30,590 nucleotides of DNA, from NCBI GenBank assembly GCA_051382335.1, contig JBBCAX010000391.1:1-30590 (forward strand), written 5' to 3'. A program made the position numbers and the translations under genes. The DNA is from Deltaproteobacteria bacterium TL4 (GTDB lineage: Bacteria; SAR324; NAC60-12). This document shows, one piece after another, positions 588 to 28,612 of the stretch. The first letter of the stretch is position 1; every line of letters starts with the position of its first letter. A model generated the notes under the pieces. The model was not told where the DNA came from and did no database searches. It saw only the letters and a program-made list of their open reading frames with translations.

Positions 588-1298
588 TTATTTTTCCGAA
601 GCGGAAACCTCAACGGGAAACCCCTCTCTTTTCCATTCCGGATAGCCGGTTTTAAAGCGGCGGGCCTGATATCCTTTTTTCCGAAGTTTAGACACCGCAT
701 CAAAGGAAAGCATGCAATAAGGACCGCGACAATAGGCAATAATCTCCTTTTCGGTTGTCAATTTTTGGATACATTCATCGATATCTCTTTGCGACAGTTT
801 CTCAAGATATGCTTCCAAATCCTTCAAGGGCATATTGATTGCTCCAGGGAGATGTCCACTAGCAAATTCTTCTGGAGAACGAACGTCAACCACGGTCACC
901 AGCCCTTCTTGTAACCTCTGAAATAAATCATCAGAAGAAATGGGTTCCAGATGGTCTTTGGCAGTGAGGTAGGTCCGTATCAATAGATCAACTTCAGCAA
1001 GATTATTTTCAGCAATTTTCCTCAAGAGCGACAATAAATCCACGACGGCCTCATCCGCTAGTTGGTAATGTACAAAAAGCCCTTCCTTTCTTGTAGTGAC
1101 CAATCCTGCTTGATGGAGTTGCCTTAAATGTTGGGAAGTATTAGCCATCGTTAACCCAGAAGCCTTTGCCAAAGCTTCTACGCTCCACTCTCCTTGGGCG
1201 AGAAATTCCAACAGTTCCAAGCGGTTCCCGCTGCCCAGAGCCTTGCCCACACGAGCTAATTGTTCAAAAAGTTCTTTTTTCACATTTTTGGTTGACAT
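588..1298 (-). CDS. ArsR/SmtB-family transcriptional regulator fused to a C-terminal rhodanese domain
   Basis: N-terminal wHTH (KALGSGNRLELLEFLAQGEWSVEALAKASGLTMANTSQHLRQL...GLV). Rhodanese motifs VVDVRSPEEFASGHLPGAINMP and active-site loop YCRGPYC. AGAGGAG RBS upstream. Confidence 0.95.
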   Translation of the reverse strand: MSTKNVKKELFEQLARVGKALGSGNRLELLEFLAQGEWSVEALAKASGLTMANTSQHLRQLHQAGLVTTRKEGLFVHYQLADEAVVDLLSLLRKIAENNLAEVDLLIRTYLTAKDHLEPISSDDLFQRLQEGLVTVVDVRSPEEFASGHLPGAINMPLKDLEAYLEKLSQRDIDECIQKLTTEKEIIAYCRGPYCMLSFDAVSKLRKKGYQARRFKTGYPEWKREGFPVEVSASEK

Positions 1299-1320
1299 AT
1301 TCTCCTCTATACTATATTTA

Positions 1321-1340
1321 ATTCAACTAATTAATTGAAT
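1321..1340. promoter_or_regulatory. Palindromic operator, likely bound by the ArsR-rhodanese regulator
   Basis: ATTCAACTAATTAATTGAAT is a 20-bp palindrome with one mismatched pair (ATTCAA-N8-TTGAAT). It lies 22 bp upstream of the ArsR start, in the divergent intergenic region. Confidence 0.7.
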
Positions 1341-1521
1341 AGTTTTTTTAATTTGCTTAAAGCTAACACACACACTTCCCTTCGTCAAGTACGAATGAAT
1401 TAGGGGAGTCATCTGATCAAATGCAATATCTTACTCTGATTTATCAATCGCTGGCACAATACCACAAAAGACAAGATTCACCGTTGGTGATAACAATCAA
1501 CAATCAATATAGGAGGTGAAA

Positions 1522-1875
1522 ATGAACATTTTATTCATCATCAATGACGCCCCTTATGGAAGCGAGAAGGCATATAATGCCTTAAGACTGGCAATGGCCT
1601 TACAAAAAGAAAAAGCGGATGTCCAGATGCGGATTTTTTTAACGGCTGACGCAGTCACCTGCGCTTTAGCCAACCAATCAACACCGCAGGGATATTATAA
1701 TATAGAGCGGATGTTAAAAGCTGTGATTCACAAAGGTGGTAACGTCAAGACCTGAGGTAGCTGTTCTGATGCTCGTGGTCTACGAGAACTGCAACTGATC
1801 GAGGGGATGGAAATCAGTGGAATGGCTCAATTGGCGCAATGGACCATTGAGGCGGATAAAGTACTTACCTTCTAA
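1522..1875 (+). CDS. ychN: DsrE/YchN-family sulfur-relay protein, probable selenoprotein (UGA 1753-1755 = Sec; 117 aa)
   Basis: AGGAGG RBS at 1511-1516 and ATG at 1522. Reading through TGA 1753 gives ...GGNVKT-U-GSCSDARGLRELQLIEGMEISGMAQLAQWTIEADKVLTF-TAA(1873-1875). This is colinear with E. coli YchN as I recall it (VKLCKTCTDGRG...LAQWTLSADKVLTF, 117 aa). The UGA falls on the first Cys of the CxxC motif. Confidence 0.88.
1756..1792 (+). promoter_or_regulatory. Bacterial SECIS-like stem-loop
   Basis: CTCGT-GGTCT-ACGAG hairpin at 1772-1786, with a G-first loop about 21 nt after the UGA. The GGUCU core matches the E. coli fdhF SECIS apex. A lower stem is possible between 1760-1765 and 1787-1792. 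Confidence 0.75.
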
Positions 1876-1892
1876 CTATAAGGAGAACGATC

Positions 1893-2311
1893 ATGGGTAA
1901 AAAAATTATTGTTTTAGGTGGTGGTGCCGGAGGATTGGTAGTCGCCAACCGGCTGCGAAAAGCCTTATCTCAAGAGCATGAGATTACCCTTGTTGATCAG
2001 GGGAAAAATCATATTTTCTATCCTTCTTTTCCTTGGTTGATGCTGGAATGGAGGAACAGCCAACAAGTTCAAAGAGTTTGATGGGAATGGATATCCTTGG
2101 TTGATGCTGGAATGGAGGAACAGCCAACAAGTTCAAAGAGTTTGATGGGAATGGATATTGTTTTCTTGAGTTGGGCGATGGTCGGGCCGGTTATGCCAGT
2201 GGCAACTTTTATGCGGATCCCAAGCCCACAGTGAATTTGAAAAATCCGTCCCGATGGTGGCATTGGGGAAAAGTGCTTTTTGAAAAATGGTGGCTCTGGA
2301 AATGGTTTTGA
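1893..2311 (+). pseudogene. sqr: Sulfide:quinone oxidoreductase-like FAD oxidoreductase pseudogene (N- and C-termini only)
   Basis: N-terminal Rossmann motif MGKKIIVLGGGAGGLVVANRL...HIFYPSFPWLM stops at 2081. In another frame, about 2135-2311 encodes KEFDGNGYCFLELGDGRAGYASGNFYADPKPTVNLKNPSRWWHWGKVLFEKWWLWKWF*, a typical type III SQR-like C-terminus. The central region is missing. Confidence 0.8.
2031..2158 (+). repeat. Perfect 64-bp tandem duplication (2031-2094 and 2095-2158)
   Basis: CCTTGGTTGATGCTGGAATGGAGGAACAGCCAACAAGTTCAAAGAGTTTGATGGGAATGGATAT occurs twice head-to-tail. Confidence 0.97.
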
Positions 2312-2345
2312 GAACTGTGCGCAAACAACAATAATGAGGAATCTC

Positions 2346-2680
2346 ATGTTACAGAAACTACTGATCAACTTTTCGGTCAAACATCCTAAGCGGGTACTGG
2401 GATTGTCGGGAGTAATCACGCTTTTTTTCCTGGCGGCGTTCCCCAATATGACTATTGACACCGATCCGGTACACAGCTTCCCCAGGACAATCCGGCGATT
2501 GTGCTCTATGAGCAGATGAAGTAGGAATTTGAGCTGTATGACATGGTGGTGGTCGGCATTCACAAGACGGATGGTTCCTCCCTGTTCACTGGGATGGATT
2601 GACGAAGATTTACAATATCACCAAAGAGATTCTGAAAGTTCAGGATCATCCCCCTGCGCCTTCCTGGTGGCAAAGCGTTT
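2346..2680 (+). pseudogene. MMPL/RND-family transporter N-terminal remnant
   Basis: GAGGA RBS, then MLQKLLINFSVKHPKRVLGLSGVITLFFLAAFPNMTIDTDP. After a frameshift: PQDNPAIVLYEQMK*EFELYDMVVVGIHK. After another: DGLTKIYNITKEILKV. Multiple lesions, then truncation. Confidence 0.7.
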
Positions 2681-2700
2681 TAGGATACTGTGCGATCAAG

Positions 2701-4753: not shown

Positions 4754-6955
4754 ATGAAAGAAATCATCAGTATCAGTTTAGGCCCTAGCAGTAACGATTA
4801 TGAATTTGAAATCGAGTTTTTAGGTCATGATTTTCGGATCCGACGTTTTGGAACAGACCGGGATGAAGAAAAAGCGGCAAAATTATTATCGCACTGGGAA
4901 TATGAAGCGGACGCGATTGGTTTGGGAATGGTCCGAGAGCACTATTCCATCGGGACGCGACGTTTTATACAGAAGGATACAGCTCGGCTTGAAAGCCTGG
5001 CCACTCGAGTTCCTGTCACCACAGGTTCTCATGTCCGGGCCATCTTACAAAAATGGGCTGTTCGACATACGCAGTTGGAGTTAAAGAATAATTTTAATAA
5101 TGCCAGAGTTCTCTTTTTATCAGGCATGCTCAACTATGAAATGGCGACTGTGATGTCAGAGTTTACGGAAAACCTGACGTTTGCGGATCCCGTATTGCAA
5201 CTGGGGATTCCCAAAGTGCTGACCTCGCTCAAGTCGCTGGAACTGTACTCACGGGGCAGTCATGAATTACTCAAATGGACTCCAAGTAAAGTCATCTTTC
5301 CTTCGCTCCCTACAGGTAAAAAATGGAATAAACTCATTCTGCGCAAGGCCATGCAAAAAGCGAGTATTATTGTTGGCCCTTTCGCTCAACTCGAAAATTA
5401 CACGTTGGAGGAATTAGGAGGAAAAACCGTCATCACCTCAACACTTTCCGAAGACAGAATCCAATTTTTTAAAGAGTGTGGCGTAAAACTGGCGATAGAT
5501 GTTTCGCCTCAAACCATGAAACACGTGATTGGCATGAATGTGTTGGAAGCCATGATTATGGTTGCCTTGGGTAAATCCATTGAGGATATTACCAGTGAAG
5601 ATTATTTGGAAATCATCCGGGATTACAATATGGAGCCTCGGTTAATTTACCCTAGCGGGGCATATAACCGTGTTAATCGCTTTGCTTTTGTCATTCATCC
5701 GTTGTCTCAAGAATATTTCAAAAAAATCAAACCTGTCAGAATTCTGTCTGAAGTCACCCCTAACCACTTTATGACTGTGGTCGAAAAAGTCATTGCGCAT
5801 TCACCACCCTTTGTTTACTCCACGGTTTCCGGTATTAAATCCCCGACAGGCGACGAAGCGGAAGGCTGGTTGATTTCTGTAGGCGGAACCCCCCGCGAAA
5901 TGCTGGCCCGCAGCCCTGAATTTACTTATCGCCGATTGCTGGCCGCAGCCAAAATGGCTGAGCGAATGGGTGCCTCCATCATGGGGTTGGGAGCCTTTAC
6001 CAAGGTAGTCGGAGACGCAGGGGTAACCGTCTCAAAACGATCCACACTGCCCATTACGTCAGGGAATAGTTATAGCGCTTCAGGTGCGCTCTGGGCTGCC
6101 GCGGATGCCGCCAGACGGATGGGGATTATCGCCATGACTTCTGGTAAAAAAATCAAAGGAAAGGCCATGGTTATTGGTGCGACCGGTTCTATCGGCGCGG
6201 TTTCGGCCCGACTTTTGGCAAAGGCCTGTGAAATCGTGTATTTGATCGCGCCTCGTCCTGATAAACTGTTGGAATTAAAAAAATCCATTGAAAAGGAAAC
6301 CCCCGATGCTTGTTTGGTAGTGTCCACTGAGGGGGATGAGTTTCTGGCGGATATGGATATGATTGTGACAACCACGTCAGGCGCAGGTAAGAAAGTCTTG
6401 GATATCACCAAAGTCAAACCGGGATGCATCATCACCGATGTGGCACGTCCCCTGGATTTACCGCCCAGTGAGGTTGCAAAACGCCCGGATGTCCTGGTGA
6501 TTGAGTCCGGTGAGATTCTAATACCAGGAACGTTAAAAATGAAAAATATTGGACTTCCTGAAAATGTGGTTTTTGCGTGTATGGCAGAAACTATTGTTTT
6601 GGCGTTAGAAGGACGATATGAAGTGTTTACGATTGGACGGGAGATTGAGTGGGAAAAAGTCAAAGAAATTTACGCCTTAGGCTTAAAACATGGAATGCGG
6701 TTAGCCGCAATTTCAGGAGTGAATGGGGTTTATAGCGATGAAGATATCCTCAGGGTTCGAGACTTGGCACTCAAAGAACGTAAGCGGCTTGGAATTCCAA
6801 CGCCTGGGATAGATCAGGATACCAGTGAGGAATCCTCCGCAAAAACTGACGGAGCCAGTGAACCTGCTGTCGCGAAAGCGACGGGTGCCACAAAAAAGGT
6901 ACCGGCAGCGAACCCCAAGGCACCCATAACCCCTGATAAAACCACAACTCAGTAG
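4754..6955 (+). CDS. Two-part NAD(P)-dependent dehydrogenase with a C-terminal acyl-ACP-reductase-like domain
   Basis: RFAFVIHPL, LGAFTKVVGD, TSGNSYS, GATGSIG (Rossmann), DVARP and FACMAETIVLALEG motifs. N-terminal ~300 aa 'ISLGPS' domain, low-complexity tail, AAGGAG RBS. Confidence 0.75.
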   Translation: MKEIISISLGPSSNDYEFEIEFLGHDFRIRRFGTDRDEEKAAKLLSHWEYEADAIGLGMVREHYSIGTRRFIQKDTARLESLATRVPVTTGSHVRAILQKWAVRHTQLELKNNFNNARVLFLSGMLNYEMATVMSEFTENLTFADPVLQLGIPKVLTSLKSLELYSRGSHELLKWTPSKVIFPSLPTGKKWNKLILRKAMQKASIIVGPFAQLENYTLEELGGKTVITSTLSEDRIQFFKECGVKLAIDVSPQTMKHVIGMNVLEAMIMVALGKSIEDITSEDYLEIIRDYNMEPRLIYPSGAYNRVNRFAFVIHPLSQEYFKKIKPVRILSEVTPNHFMTVVEKVIAHSPPFVYSTVSGIKSPTGDEAEGWLISVGGTPREMLARSPEFTYRRLLAAAKMAERMGASIMGLGAFTKVVGDAGVTVSKRSTLPITSGNSYSASGALWAAADAARRMGIIAMTSGKKIKGKAMVIGATGSIGAVSARLLAKACEIVYLIAPRPDKLLELKKSIEKETPDACLVVSTEGDEFLADMDMIVTTTSGAGKKVLDITKVKPGCIITDVARPLDLPPSEVAKRPDVLVIESGEILIPGTLKMKNIGLPENVVFACMAETIVLALEGRYEVFTIGREIEWEKVKEIYALGLKHGMRLAAISGVNGVYSDEDILRVRDLALKERKRLGIPTPGIDQDTSEESSAKTDGASEPAVAKATGATKKVPAANPKAPITPDKTTTQ

Positions 6956-23207: not shown

Positions 23208-26200
23208 TCAGTCGTTATCTTTGTTGACCACTTTTATGTTTGGAGGATTAAGTCCCAAATACTTCAAGTCCAGACTTTTTGCCATTTCAAGAGAAACCGT
23301 ATATTTCTGGTCTCCATCTTTTTTGGAGTCATCCACTCCCGTCACACTTACTTTTTGAGGTTGATTCCAATTCAGCGGCGTGAAGGTGAGTGCTGAAACA
23401 GCAAGACTGCCTTCCGTTTTGTCAGAGACGGATAGAGGGATGGTGACCTCTTTGGTGGGTTGACTGTCAAGTCGAACCGTAAATATTGCCACATCACCGT
23501 TTTCGCTGGTGTCCGAGCTTATTTCGCTGACGGTGATCCCATGACTGTCATTATCCATGTTGGTGATTTTGATATCTTTGGGAACAATATTCTTATAAAG
23601 CTCATCCGTACTATCCAGCGCACCCAAAACCACAATAAATTTTTGATTTCCATCGGCGACCAGATCATCAACACCTGTGACGATGACTTCAAGTTCTTTC
23701 CAGTTCGCGGGAGTAAAGACCAGTTCTGAGGAGGTTACTGTTCCTTCTGAGGTGTCACTGCTGGTAATGGGTAAGGTGACGTTGGCTGTGGGTTGACTTT
23801 TCAGGCTAAGGATTATCGTATTGGTCGTACCTTCTTCTTTAACAGCGGAAGTGCCTGCAAACCAGTTTACTTTTTCTTTTAAGGAAACCTCAACCCCCGC
23901 ACTATCATCATCAATATTGGTCAAGAGCACATCCCCCGGATCTCTACTCTGATAATTGGAGTCCTGACTGCTTGCCGCACCGATCTCAATCACATAATTC
24001 TGGTCACCATCATCAATACCCTCATTGACCCCCATAACTGTGATTTTGTGTTCCGCATTCCAATCCTCAGGAGTAAAAACAAGCTCTGAAACGTTAACTG
24101 CGCCTTCTGTGGGTTTACTTGAGGCGATGGGAAAGCTGACATTGGACTTCGGTTGACTGGTAAGACTGACGGTAATGGACGTACTCCCACCCTCTTCCGT
24201 GGTGGTTGTCACTTCCCGCCACCAATGTTTTTCCACACTCAGGATCACACCAGGACTATCATTATCGACATTGACTAGGGAGATATTCGCGGGATCCAAT
24301 CCATTGTAATGCTCATCCTTACTTTGGATTACTCCCAGATCAATCGTAACGGATTGATCTCCATCTGCGACCTCGTCATTCACACCGGTTACAGTGACTT
24401 TGTGACTGGTTGAATTCCAATTTTTTGGAGTAAATTTGAGTTCTGCAGGACTTACGGCAGCTTCATTGTGATTGCTGCTGGAAAGAGAAAGAACCACATC
24501 CTGAAGGGGTTGGCTTTTCAGACGGACAGTAAACGTCACCGTATCCTGATTTTCGCTAAGTTGTCCTGAAGGTTCACTGACGAGGATTCCGGAACTGTCG
24601 TTATCAATATTAACTATCGTAATATCGTCAGGGTTGATGGCTTGGTAACCTTTATCCGCACTGCTGATTTTTTCTAAAATCACTTTAAACTCCTGATCGC
24701 CGTCAGCAATTGAATCATCAACACCTGAGACTTTAATGCGGTGATCGGTGGCGTTCCAGTTGGTGGGAGTGAAGACTAATTTGGAAGGCGTGACCTTTCC
24801 TTCCTTCTCATTGCTGCTGGAGATCGGAATCGTCACACTTTTTGTAGGCTGACTTGTTAATCGAACACTGAAGGTTGCGGTGTCTCCGTCTTCGGCTGTT
24901 TTTCCTGACAACTCACTAAGCAAAACACCCGTGCTATCATCATCTGTATTAACCACGAAGACATCTTGAGGCTTTTCTTTGTTATACTTACCATCATTGC
25001 TGCTTGCCTTGGCCAAGACAACCTTAACCTTTTGATCCCCATCGGCTACATGATCATTAACCCCGGTAACAGTCACAATATGACTCGTCGCATTCCAGTT
25101 TTGAGCAGTGAACACCAATTTGTCAGGTTTAACCGTGGCTTCTGTGGTATCATTACTGCTAACTCCGACGGAGACATTCGACGTGGGTTCACTATTCAAC
25201 TGTACCCTAAACGTAGCGGAGGTTCCTTCCTCATTGACGTTATTGCTGATTGAGCTTACTGTGAATCCCGCGGAATCGCCATCAACATTGGTGACACTGA
25301 CATCCTCGACATCCATCCCTTCATAGTTTGGATCCTCACTCATAGCGACCCCCAAAACGATACGGTATTTTTGATTGCCATCATCTATTGAATCATTCAC
25401 TCCCGTAAGTGTCACCACATGCTCCGTAGCATTCCAGTTTTGAGGCGTGAATACCAGTTGACCAGGGCTCACAATCCCTTCGGAGGTGTCACTGCTTGCA
25501 ATGGGGAGGGTTACCGCTGAGGTCGGCTGACTGTTTAAGCGCACAGAAAACGTGGCTTGGGTTCCCTCTTCTCTGGTTTCTCCACTGAGCGTGCTTACGG
25601 AAATACCCGCAGTGTCGTCATCTTGATTGCTTAATTGGATTTCTTTTAATTTGACTCGGTTATAAGTGGGATCCTCACTAATGGATTCAACAAAGACGAC
25701 ACGATAGGCTTGCGTTTCATCATCAATCGAATCATCAACGCCGGTGACGGTCACTTCATGATTCACCGCTTTCCAATTTTCTGGAGTAAAGATCAACTCG
25801 GAGGGGTCCACGATCCCCTCTTCCGGATTACTGCTATTCAAGGGAATGGTCACATTGGAAGTCGGTTGGCTTTCAAGACTGACCGAAAATTTAATAGCTT
25901 TTCCCGACTCGGAAGTGCTGGACGTGGAACCAAACAGGCTTTGTTTCAGAAGCACAGTAATTCCAGGACTATCATTATCCGCATTGCTGAGGGAGACATC
26001 CTCAGGATCCAGCTCATTGTAATTGAGATCTCTGCTGTTCGCGGCACCAAGCATAATGGCATACGCCTGATCCCCATCGGCAACATCGTCATTTATCCCG
26101 GTAACCGTAACCCAGTGGTTTGACGCGTTCCAATTATCCGTGGAGAAAGTCAGGGTTGAGGGGGTCACTGTGGCTTCAGTCTCATCGCTGCTGGAAACGG

Positions 26201-28316
26201 ACACGGTTACATCAGCGGCGGGTTTGCTCTTTAAACGCACGTTAAAGGAAACCTGGTCTCCGTTTTCATTCGTTTCAACCGTGTCGTTCCACCATGAAGT
26301 TTTGAGCTGGAGTTCAAATCCCGCGCTGTCATTATCCACATTGATGATTTCGAGATCACCTGGTTTGAAACCATCATAATCTTTATCCGAGCTATTGGCT
26401 TCTCCCAACAGGATTGAATAATTTTGATCTCCATCAACCAGGTCATCATTCACCCCCGTCACGGTCACAAGATGGTCTTCGGAGCTCCAGTTTTCTGAAG
26501 TAAAGGTGAGTTTTGAGACACTCACGCTACCCTCATTTTCATTACTGCTGGATACGGGGAGGGTTACTTTTTTTGAAGGTTTGCTGGTAAGTTTCACCCT
26601 AAAAACGGCTTTATCTCCCGCTTCAGAAGTGTTCCCGCTTATCTTACTGACGCTAAAGCCAGGACTGTCATTGTCCAAGTTTGTCACCATGACATCCTCA
26701 GGATCCTGTTCGTGATACCCGAGATCCTTGCTCTCCACTTTCCCCAGTTCTACCTTAAATTCCTGGGGACCATCAGAAACATCATCGTCAATGCCTGTGA
26801 TCGTAACGACATTACTGGTCGCATTCCAGTTATCAGGCGTAATCACCAGTTCCGCGGGAGAAACCGTTCCTTCCGACAAGTCTTTACTTTTTACTGGAAT
26901 GACTACATTGGCCTTTGGTTTAGACGCAAGCTGCACTGAAAAAGAGGCGGTACTTCCCTCTTCAGAACTTGCACCACTGACCTTACTCATCAAAAAGCCC
27001 GGACTGTCATTGTCCTTATTAGTCAAACTCACAGCCTCTGCATCCAAACCCGAATAATTGTGATCTTCACTCACTGCGGGCGCAAGTATAACTTTGTAAC
27101 TCTGGTTTCCATCAAGCGCCTCATCATTGACGCCTGTCACTGTAATTTGATGATTGGACGCATTCCAATTGTCAGGAGTGAAAACCAACTCAGCAGGTTT
27201 AACTGTCCCCTCCGTAGGAGCACTACTCGTCACCGCAATGGTTACTGTGGAAGAAGGTTGACTGTTTAATTTAACAGAAAAACGGATGGTTCCTCCAGAC
27301 TCTGTGGTGATCGTTTGTAATTTAAACCAACGTTTTTCCAGGATGACGGAAATCCCCGCTTTATTGCCATCAATCGTTGTTACCTGAACATCCTCCGGTT
27401 TTAAGCCGTTATAAGTATCATCTTTACTCACAGCGGGTCCGAGTAAAATAGCATAAGTCTGGTCGCCATCGACACTCATATCTTTGATTCCGGTAACAGT
27501 AACTTCATGGCCGGAAGAATCCCAGTTTTTTGGAGTAAATACCAATTTTGAAGGCTTAACGGTCCCTTCCGTGGGATCATTACTGACAAGGGGAAGGGTT
27601 ACATTCTGTGTAGGCTGACTATTCAGTTTTATTTTGAATGTCGCTTTCCCGCCGCCTTCGGTGATGCTGCCCTCAGCCGCACTGACGGTAAAACCAGCGG
27701 ATTCATTATCAATATTTTTTAAAGTGATATCGCCGGGAGTTATGCCAAAATAGTTTGAACCGAAAGTCATGATTTTTTTTAGGCTTACGGTATATTCTTG
27801 ATCCCCGTCTTTGACATCATCATCAACGCCTGTTACCGTAATGATTTGTTCCGCATTCCAGTTTTCCTTTGTGAAAAAAACTTTTACGGGGGCCACTGTT
27901 GCTTCATTCTCATTACTGCTTTCAAGCTTCAAATTAATATCTACCGTAGGCGCGGCCGTTAATTTAAGACTGAAGGTAGCTACGCCTCCGGCTTCAGTAG
28001 TTTCTCCCTGGATTTCACCTATACGCACACCAGGTTCAACGGAACCAGCCGTTTCGGTGCCTTCACCAGCGGTTCCACTTGAGGCGCTGCCTTCTTTTGT
28101 TGTAATGGATGAATTGGCGGCGCCTCCAAGCTCTTCACGGGACATATCTTCTCCGCTGTCCTGCAAACCTCCAATTGTATTTTCAGAAGTCCCCGGTGTT
28201 TGTTCCTGCTTTACTAATTTTTTGCTGCCTCCTGATTCCTCCTTAAGCAAATCACAGGAGGCAAACATAAACACGACTGCTATAATGAATCCCCCTAACA
28301 CGCGTAAATTTTTCAT
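23208..28316 (-). CDS. Large surface lipoprotein with 14 tandem Calx-beta/cadherin-like Ca2+-binding repeats
   Basis: Signal peptide MKNLRVLGGFIIAVVFMFAS|C (lipobox), a Ser/Gly/Glu-rich linker, then 14 repeats of about 113 aa (E.G....F.V.L.S.P...V...FTP.NW....VTVTGV.D...DG.Q...N.DND). Confidence 0.9.
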   Translation of the reverse strand: MKNLRVLGGFIIAVVFMFASCDLLKEESGGSKKLVKQEQTPGTSENTIGGLQDSGEDMSREELGGAANSSITTKEGSASSGTAGEGTETAGSVEPGVRIGEIQGETTEAGGVATFSLKLTAAPTVDINLKLESSNENEATVAPVKVFFTKENWNAEQIITVTGVDDDVKDGDQEYTVSLKKIMTFGSNYFGITPGDITLKNIDNESAGFTVSAAEGSITEGGGKATFKIKLNSQPTQNVTLPLVSNDPTEGTVKPSKLVFTPKNWDSSGHEVTVTGIKDMSVDGDQTYAILLGPAVSKDDTYNGLKPEDVQVTTIDGNKAGISVILEKRWFKLQTITTESGGTIRFSVKLNSQPSSTVTIAVTSSAPTEGTVKPAELVFTPDNWNASNHQITVTGVNDEALDGNQSYKVILAPAVSEDHNYSGLDAEAVSLTNKDNDSPGFLMSKVSGASSEEGSTASFSVQLASKPKANVVIPVKSKDLSEGTVSPAELVITPDNWNATSNVVTITGIDDDVSDGPQEFKVELGKVESKDLGYHEQDPEDVMVTNLDNDSPGFSVSKISGNTSEAGDKAVFRVKLTSKPSKKVTLPVSSSNENEGSVSVSKLTFTSENWSSEDHLVTVTGVNDDLVDGDQNYSILLGEANSSDKDYDGFKPGDLEIINVDNDSAGFELQLKTSWWNDTVETNENGDQVSFNVRLKSKPAADVTVSVSSSDETEATVTPSTLTFSTDNWNASNHWVTVTGINDDVADGDQAYAIMLGAANSRDLNYNELDPEDVSLSNADNDSPGITVLLKQSLFGSTSSTSESGKAIKFSVSLESQPTSNVTIPLNSSNPEEGIVDPSELIFTPENWKAVNHEVTVTGVDDSIDDETQAYRVVFVESISEDPTYNRVKLKEIQLSNQDDDTAGISVSTLSGETREEGTQATFSVRLNSQPTSAVTLPIASSDTSEGIVSPGQLVFTPQNWNATEHVVTLTGVNDSIDDGNQKYRIVLGVAMSEDPNYEGMDVEDVSVTNVDGDSAGFTVSSISNNVNEEGTSATFRVQLNSEPTSNVSVGVSSNDTTEATVKPDKLVFTAQNWNATSHIVTVTGVNDHVADGDQKVKVVLAKASSNDGKYNKEKPQDVFVVNTDDDSTGVLLSELSGKTAEDGDTATFSVRLTSQPTKSVTIPISSSNEKEGKVTPSKLVFTPTNWNATDHRIKVSGVDDSIADGDQEFKVILEKISSADKGYQAINPDDITIVNIDNDSSGILVSEPSGQLSENQDTVTFTVRLKSQPLQDVVLSLSSSNHNEAAVSPAELKFTPKNWNSTSHKVTVTGVNDEVADGDQSVTIDLGVIQSKDEHYNGLDPANISLVNVDNDSPGVILSVEKHWWREVTTTTEEGGSTSITVSLTSQPKSNVSFPIASSKPTEGAVNVSELVFTPEDWNAEHKITVMGVNEGIDDGDQNYVIEIGAASSQDSNYQSRDPGDVLLTNIDDDSAGVEVSLKEKVNWFAGTSAVKEEGTTNTIILSLKSQPTANVTLPITSSDTSEGTVTSSELVFTPANWKELEVIVTGVDDLVADGNQKFIVVLGALDSTDELYKNIVPKDIKITNMDNDSHGITVSEISSDTSENGDVAIFTVRLDSQPTKEVTIPLSVSDKTEGSLAVSALTFTPLNWNQPQKVSVTGVDDSKKDGDQKYTVSLEMAKSLDLKYLGLNPPNIKVVNKDND

Positions 28317-28612
28317 AGTATCCCCTTGGTTGTTTTGACTTAACAAAATACGCTATTTCTAGGTGAAACAGCATCCTTTCTTATTTCATAGTAAAATCTT
28401 CGTAACATTACCATAAAAAACATAAACTATATTTATATTCTACAAAAAAATGTTGTTTTATATTGAAACAGTACTAAATAGGTGCTATTTTAAAATCAAA
28501 TAGACTAGCTTAATATCCGATTAAACGTTATCCTGTTTTAATTGTGATGAATAGGCGCGTTCTGAAATAGCACTATTATAGTGCTGTATGAAGGGTATTT
28601 AGAGGAGGAATC

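Follow-up and report, generated by a model that had tools for sequence, protein, structure and literature searches.

Sulfide:quinone oxidoreductase (SQR) oxidises H2S to sulfane sulfur and passes the electrons to quinone, and in operons of the Staphylococcus aureus cst type sulfide detoxification is controlled by a sulfur-responsive repressor. RND/MMPL proteins are exporters. In the literature, DsrE proteins are reported to accept sulfur on the cysteine equivalent to residue 78 of YchN (PMC11094781, PMC13047784, PMC13293266), DsrE-like UxxC selenoproteins are a known family that is described as largely uncharacterised (PMC1088965, PMC13188914), and the persulfide sensors SqrR, BigR, HlyU, and YgaV form cluster 4 of a sequence similarity network (SSN), with a cysteine pair in helices alpha2 and alpha5 (PMC10054925). 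How zero-valent sulfur crosses two membranes, whether it is to be discarded once sulfide has been oxidised or put to use, has found little explanation, and this literature offers YeeE-type carriers of the inner membrane as the chief candidates. This paper describes a locus at the start of contig JBBCAX010000391.1 of Deltaproteobacteria bacterium TL4 (phylum SAR324; assembly GCA_051382335.1), in which the gene of an ArsR-rhodanese regulator stands beside genes for a DsrE protein, SQR, and an MMPL transporter. The window, i.e., the whole stretch of 30,590 nucleotides (nt) that was analysed, is contig C391 of a genome of 445 contigs and 6.59 Mb, and its phylum was represented by 88 genomes of one class.

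Comparison of the locus with its relatives suggests, at about even odds, that the module in its complete form is a persulfide-induced sulfide-detoxification operon, in which MMPL, a LolA-like protein, and an outer-membrane beta-barrel protein (hereafter the trio) would likely export zero-valent sulfur. Judged by its sequence, the window locus is a decayed copy of a mobile, mix-and-match operon, at which just the regulator, its operator, and the selenocysteine (Sec) form of YchN are predicted to be still able to work. The preliminary description of this locus had placed the regulator divergent from a tightly spaced DsrE-SQR-MMPL unit with an operator between them, and every element of that layout is present, with gaps of 17 nt between DsrE and the SQR remnant and 34 nt between the SQR and MMPL remnants. 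The features are as follows.

588-1298, minus strand: intact gene of an ArsR-rhodanese fusion regulator of 236 amino acids (Pfam HTH_5 and Rhodanese), with the loop C190-R-G-P-Y-C195.
1320-1341, no strand: palindromic operator (predicted binding site), with the consensus TATTCAA-N8-TTGAATA, situated about 40 nt upstream of where the regulator gene starts, from promoter comparison.
1522-1875, plus strand: intact gene of a YchN-type DsrE protein of 117 amino acids, a predicted selenoprotein with U78-x-x-C81 (Pfam, YchN orthology, and TGA in relatives).
1753-1755, plus strand: in-frame TGA, the predicted Sec78, aligned with Cys78 of YchN and with TGC or TGT in 162 of 169 homologous loci.
1772-1786, plus strand: hairpin resembling a selenocysteine insertion sequence (SECIS), with a 5-bp stem and GGUCU loop, from 21 nt past the UGA (stem comparison and covariation).
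1893-2311, plus strand: pseudogene of a type III-like SQR, about 263 codons deleted, the first catalytic Cys among them.
2030-2157, plus strand: perfect 64-nt tandem duplication across the SQR deletion junction (sequence repeat).
2346-2682, plus strand: remnant of an MMPL-family RND transporter, the first 113 of about 880 amino acids, with frameshifts near 2476 and 2592 and a TAG at 2522-2524.

The rhodanese domain of the regulator (PF00581) scored 62.4 bits against a cut-off of 22.2 and has the conserved loop Cys. As had been proposed, the translation of 588-1298 combines an ArsR half that has no Cys at all with a CRGPYC rhodanese loop; the third Cys of the protein lies in a 12-residue insert that none of 31 relatives shares. 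Both Cys of the CRGxxC motif were present in 33 of 33 full-length fusions, one of which has an internal stop and was excluded from the comparison that gave the insert and the invariance of C190, and no column of the ArsR domain had Cys in more than 12 of the 33, making the fused rhodanese the only conserved Cys site of the regulator. An alignment-based structure model (predicted local distance difference test, pLDDT, 86) matched rhodaneses and the DNA-binding fragment of mycobacterial Mb0332, the nearest solved pieces being Mb0332 fragment 1-100 and the rhodanese BH2092; a single-sequence fold was discarded (pLDDT 38). Assignment to BigR was rejected, as the BigR model scored 41 against a cut-off of 155 and the alpha2/alpha5 Cys pair is not conserved in the 33 fusions. 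Elsewhere, at G000:C147:14275-14556, a third related regulator is represented by its rhodanese half (loop CRGTYC) without an ArsR half, behind a frame of 262 amino acids.

The operator core TTCAA-N8-TTGAA was perfect upstream of 22 of 33 fusions, or 20 of 31 when the two that had suggested it are omitted, as compared with 0 of 20 promoters of stand-alone ArsR genes and 0.03% of shuffles. With a matrix built from 25 sites of other genomes, the window site (1320) and the site of its paralogue ranked first and second in their own genome (6.6 Mb). The operator that had been put forward corresponds to the palindrome at 1320-1341, which is beyond chance, and since it is conserved at fusion promoters and the two sites rank at the top of the genome, the fusion has a predicted operator of its own and is probably autoregulated.

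Among 32 fusion loci, most of which were reached via YchN searches, the neighbours included SQR (17), desaturase-family genes (11), CusA-type genes (6), chromate transporters (5), and YeeE (3), as well as methyltransferases. In an independent plasmid sample, for which 10 loci were chosen among the 25 best of 73 matches, the operator core was perfect in 6; here the partners of the fusion were metallo-beta-lactamase (MBL)-fold and major facilitator superfamily (MFS) genes, or desaturase-family genes. Three of the 10 fusions face the MBL-fold gene, which has its best solved relatives in 3tp9 and 3r2u (beta-lactamase/rhodanese proteins) and is followed at some distance by ETHE1. The shared thread of these partners is reactive sulfur, but a metal or metalloid may also act as inducer.

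The DsrE domain (PF02635) scored 98.1 bits against a cut-off of 22.7 (E 5e-28), and the protein is the orthologue of Escherichia coli YchN (1jx7, E 6e-32), with an equal length of 117 residues and a TGA in place of Cys78 of the CxxC motif. It scored 47.6 bits against the 89.25 required by TIGR03012 (TusD/DsrE of DsrEFH), and neither dsrF nor dsrH was found in the locus. Among 11 genomes of the phylum with a close YchN, codon 78 is TGA in 6 (that of the window included) and a Cys codon in the other 5. The wider set of 169 homologous loci, drawn from the phylum (10), from GTDB (the 80 best of 594 matches), and from metagenomes (79, out of the 80 best of 563 matches), included 7 with TGA and 162 with Cys at this residue, a count biased against TGA by one metagenome search pattern that demanded a Cys codon. 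Altogether 8 YchN loci besides that of the window, belonging to several lineages, have TGA at this codon (5 relatives, 2 further loci, and genome G1010). The last of these, L344, has ArsR, TGA-YchN, MMPL, and a LolA-like gene in one operon, with selA in the genome.

The window genome encodes SelA, SelB, and SelD over cut-offs as well as tRNA-Sec, its selD (G000:C310:7917-8840) having an in-frame TGA of its own, and selA was present in all genomes with TGA-YchN that were tested (six, and G1010). About 21 nt past the UGA, a GG loop on a 5-bp stem was seen in the window and in 5 of 7 TGA loci, as compared with 3 of 162 Cys loci. Across 8 TGA sequences two pairs of the hairpin were altered on both sides, with a covariation of 0.336 that 1 of 500 shuffles reached, a figure inflated by kinship and codon choice. 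The folding energy of the region did not exceed that of shuffles (z 0.3 to 1.3), so that the weight lies on the comparative pattern. The proposed reading of the UGA as Sec is borne out by the machinery, by the TGA in relatives, and by the covarying hairpin, and the UGA very likely specifies selenocysteine. A window-type hairpin was also observed with Sec-YchN at L105:7001-7351, in a Zixibacteria genome, and at L178:3323-3673, on a syntenic metagenome contig.

The selenium dependence that had been ascribed to the module is not obligatory: 162 of the 169 loci have Cys, and because three of the relatives with Cys-YchN also have selA, selenium appears to be optional for YchN. In a YchN tree of 92 rows obtained by quick search, with L178 as the sole metagenome locus, the Sec label takes 5 changes, of which well-supported branches force just 2, and the order of gains and losses is not resolvable from it.

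Both downstream genes are remnants, as the preliminary description had stated. As assembled, the SQR remnant joins out of frame residues 1-61 and 325-381 of an intact relative of 381 amino acids, without residues 62-324. The intact relatives (L034, L037, L041, and L055) have the start of a flavin adenine dinucleotide (FAD)-binding region and two catalytic Cys, which in L034 align with those of solved SQRs; their best NCBIfam model is type III (NF049943), with 218-254 bits, below its cut-off of 525. The MMPL remnant is 82% identical in nucleotides to a paralogue on contig C11 of the same genome and, as assembled, has two 1-nt deletions in addition to the TAG. A second copy of the module is likewise broken. 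It extends over the end of L001 and over L002 (contigs C97 and C11) and comprises an ArsR-rhodanese gene with operator, an SQR that an insertion sequence has interrupted, leaving an 11-bp target duplication, a methyltransferase, a Cys-DsrE of another subfamily, an MMPL lacking residues 162-514, a LolA-like gene, and pieces of a Tn3 transposase. Because both SQR and both MMPL copies are broken, the oxidation and transport steps appear to have been lost twice, with regulators and carriers kept. The SQR query detected no further SQR in the genome at E 1e-8, and neither dsrA nor soxB scored over cut-off, on which ground a dissimilatory sulfur-oxidising lifestyle was rejected.

Six further genomes of the phylum have the fusion, YchN, and SQR genes clustered in a stretch of about 3 kb; the TGA occurs in 3 of these genomes (G004, G043, and G042, whose YchN is interrupted by a masked stretch), and Sec-YchN, SQR, and ArsR-rhodanese are intact in two relatives. 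G004 shares the divergent layout of the window and has an extra TusA and an intact SQR, without MMPL. Elsewhere, L350 (G803) combines SQR, YchN, ArsR-rhodanese, MMPL, LolA, and the outer-membrane protein, all intact, on one strand and in one operon, with YchN in its Cys form. L324 (G480) has a divergent fusion, DsrE, SQR, and the trio; L326 (G643) has the operator, YchN, SQR, and the trio; L325, L347, and L348 have fusion, YchN, and MMPL; and L055 holds another overlapping subset of the module genes. The gene order expected in related genomes is therefore found outside the window, and the set including MMPL recurs, whereas the exact four genes with Sec-YchN were intact in none of the genomes searched, which held overlapping intact subsets.

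The MMPL gene is one part of the trio: a LolA-like gene (PF17131) always comes next, usually followed by a gene for a DUF1302-like outer-membrane protein. Intact orthologues matching PF03176, full length and with two repeats, were found in 12 further genomes of the phylum, and in every case the LolA-like gene comes after them. Of the 13 other orthologue loci in the phylum, 4 have rhodanese or TusA/DsrEFH/YeeE neighbours, and 5 (L206, L207, L208, L210, and L216) directly follow a stand-alone ArsR gene with a Cys pair of the YgaV/BigR/HlyU type. SQR accompanied the trio in 5 of 20 loci from the class of G092 and in 2 of 16 from the phylum of G093, with any sulfur gene in 8 and 5 of these loci, respectively; for these samples, and for that of the phylum of G091, all listed matches were fetched, Desulfobacterota, Bacteroidota, and Campylobacterota lying outside the sampling. 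As controls, sulfur neighbours were found at 0 of 13 distant MMPL paralogues and in 3 of 150 random 15-kb windows of the same genome. On a plasmid of Ilyobacter polytropus (L283) the trio comes after selD, yedF, and the DUF3343 gene on the same strand.

The association was most pronounced in Nitrospirota, where 56 of 301 genomes hold an MMPL orthologue. From 55 new loci 40 were fetched (L284-L323), those skipped lying mostly at contig ends, and SQR was found in 29 of the 40 and any sulfur gene in 36. The typical order, on one strand, is dsrE-dsrF-dsrH-sqr-(arsR-dsrE2)-mmpL-lolA-omp. The SQR of these loci is near the Aquifex and Acidithiobacillus structures (Aquifex-like, E 9e-97) and belongs to a different class from the type III-like SQR of the window. 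All 25 DsrE copies that were scored, from 25 of the 40 loci and each accompanied by SQR, have TGA at the equivalent of residue 78, with two hairpin types downstream, and selA was present in all four genomes tested. Ordinary gene calling cuts this DsrE at the UGA, and surveys of DsrEFH may therefore miss or truncate the selenoprotein form.

Taken together, these data are consistent with the following mechanism. SQR would oxidise H2S to sulfane sulfur with quinone as electron acceptor, and YchN would take up the sulfur on residue 78, for which Sec may be a more reactive option to the Cys of most organisms. Cys190 of the regulator would take up a persulfide and form a bridge to Cys195, so that the operator is released, and, considering the behaviour of RND/MMPL proteins and the gene order, the trio may pass hydrophobic zero-valent sulfur from the inner membrane via a LolA-like shuttle to the barrel. 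The parts of this proposal differ in strength. Reactive sulfur, as persulfide, is probably the inducer of the regulator, and a sulfur relay on YchN is only slightly less probable; that the cargo of the trio contains sulfur is somewhat favoured, and its outward movement as zero-valent sulfur is put forward more tentatively. Doubtful, though worth stating, is the most specific version, in which the trio forms a trans-envelope conduit for zero-valent sulfur that is fed by SQR via DsrE carriers and switched by a new ArsR-rhodanese class of persulfide sensors, with Sec recruited at least twice, namely in the YchN type of the window and in the DsrEFH type of Nitrospirota.

Several observations weigh against a dedicated sulfur exporter. 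The Nitrospirota loci are kin rather than independent cases, SQR was absent from all 13 other MMPL orthologue loci of the phylum, and in the phylum of G091 (Myxococcota) 0 of 15 trio loci had SQR or any sulfur gene. Seen from YchN, MMPL was nearby in 3 of 169 loci. Sec-YchN occurs without a sulfur neighbour in G010 and G021 and, in L105 and L178, between smc and ftsY. None of the 10 plasmid fusion loci has SQR, several being situated in mercury, copper, or chromate islands, and desaturase-family genes (11 of 32), methyltransferases, CusA-type genes, and chromate transporters recur beside the fusion. Moreover, 57 MMPL proteins share no invariant Cys; Met accounts for 9 of the 98 columns conserved at 95% or more (L055:1442-3763 and orthologues), clustered at residues 222-288, and conserved Met suits a soft metal as well as sulfur. 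With this excess of conserved Met and without an invariant Cys, the cargo is probably bound non-covalently, and the cluster is a possible soft-atom pathway. In an operon that answers sulfane sulfur, the trio could have a different cargo: a thiol or selenide in methylated form, a soft metal, a thio-metalloid, or a lipid modified by the neighbouring methyltransferase or desaturase-family enzyme. The conserved Met, the methyltransferases inside several trio operons and in the paralogous C11 locus, and the position of the trio after selD-yedF-DUF3343 in Ilyobacter fit this alternative, as do the solved relatives HpnN, MmpL4/5, and Dispatched, which move lipids or siderophores and match the MMPL weakly (E 1e-5 or worse for the bacterial ones, and below NCBIfam cut-offs). 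It is nevertheless unlikely, as methyltransferases were found in 9 of the 40 Nitrospirota loci versus 29 for SQR, which usually is the nearest large gene upstream of MMPL. More improbable still is the reverse direction, i.e., import of zero-valent sulfur or polysulfide as an energy substrate feeding DsrEFH/TusA: the trio shares operons with DsrEFH-like, YeeE, and TauE genes in Nitrospirota and adjoins polysulfide reductase genes in L213, and an inward sulfur relay has been proposed for type II DsrEFH in the accessible part of PMC13293266, but RND/MMPL proteins are known as exporters and the genome, with neither dsrA nor soxB over cut-off, has no evident use for imported sulfur.

Alternatively, the trio could be a generic envelope transporter riding in stress islands, the functional unit consisting of just regulator, YchN, and SQR. 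The rarity of MMPL near YchN and the trio loci that lack a sulfur neighbour (15 of 15, 12 of 20, and 11 of 16 for the phylum of G091, the class of G092, and the phylum of G093, respectively) speak for this possibility, which is nonetheless given a low probability, about that of import, in view of the recurrence of the link in four lineages and twice in the window genome, and of its absence from the distant MMPL paralogues. The notion that MMPL was a local accident, suggested by the 3 of 169 YchN loci and by the MMPL orthologue loci of the phylum, was dropped after the trio loci of Nitrospirota and other lineages were seen. Because the partners of the trio come from two SQR classes, at least three DsrE types, and three ArsR types, the trio-sulfur link appears functional despite the kinship among loci. 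It is very improbable that the TGA of DsrE is a further inactivating mutation of a dead operon: both downstream genes are pseudogenes and the energy of the hairpin is weak, but 8 further YchN loci share the TGA, the frame is open to its normal end, the hairpin covaries, and selA accompanies the TGA wherever tested.

Besides the module, the window contains other elements. The contig starts (1-464) with a multi-copy element that has a transposase-like frame and, in this copy, an internal deletion, and the 223 nt at 2701-2923 are 94% identical to C145, where a long transposase-like frame lies; this second element is probably what cut the MMPL gene. A protein of 733 amino acids is encoded at 4754-6955, its C-terminal half resembling the PigE N-terminus and acyl-acyl carrier protein (ACP) reductase below cut-offs, and a Calx-beta repeat protein of 1712 amino acids at 23208-28346. 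Scans of the locus for sigma-70 promoters and terminators gave no excess over shuffles.

The window copy itself represents ordinary decay and is of value as a pointer alone. A transporter of three parts that accompanies SQR in several phyla is a concrete and testable candidate for sulfur movement across the envelope, and the fused regulator with its 22-bp operator offers a ready reporter and a route to regulon lists in many genomes. In the open literature, including PMC5322559 and apart from supplementary tables and subscription papers, the accessible text does not describe the trio-SQR link, Sec-DsrEFH, or the fused regulator and its operator, and the main text of PMC13293266 contains none of the terms 'selen', 'UGA', 'RND', and 'efflux' and does not mention a selenoprotein DsrEFH.

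Compared with known systems, the regulator resembles SqrR, BigR, HlyU, and YgaV as an ArsR winged helix beside sqr and sulfur-transferase genes, and differs from them in lacking the alpha2/alpha5 Cys pair, in having its invariant Cys just in the fused rhodanese, and in its own operator. The closest solved ArsR domain is that of Mb0332 (PDB 2kko/3gw2; E 1e-19, 42-45% identity), of which fragment 1-100 was solved and which in full length presumably carries a rhodanese. Rv1674c is termed a rhodanese domain protein in the available part of PMC11439070, and the literature searched gave no description of a sensing mechanism or operator for a mycobacterial ArsR-rhodanese. The window YchN shares PF02635, UxxC, and a downstream G-loop hairpin with the DsrE-like UxxC selenoproteins (a likeness drawn from these traits rather than from the representative sequences of those papers), whose accounts, in the parts available, are silent on any operon that includes SQR, an RND trio, or a fused regulator. 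The transporter is, like HpnN and MmpL4/5 (MMPL/HAE3-type RND), a Pfam MMPL protein with two repeats, and unlike these it is always paired with a LolA-like PF17131 protein and usually with a DUF1302-like protein. With the S. aureus cst operons and the sHdr/DsrEFH relays, as far as the accessible parts of PMC11094781 and PMC13293266 describe them, the module shares SQR and Cys-based carriers (DsrE, TusA, and rhodanese), and it differs by Sec at the carrier position and by the MMPL/LolA-like/beta-barrel trio. Each domain, and Sec-DsrE as a selenoprotein family, is already known, and the new weight lies in the link of the transporter to SQR and in the recurrent recruitment of selenocysteine. In its predicted function, the module works like a sulfide-detoxification operon of the cst/sqr type, under a regulator that is outside the SqrR/BigR class.

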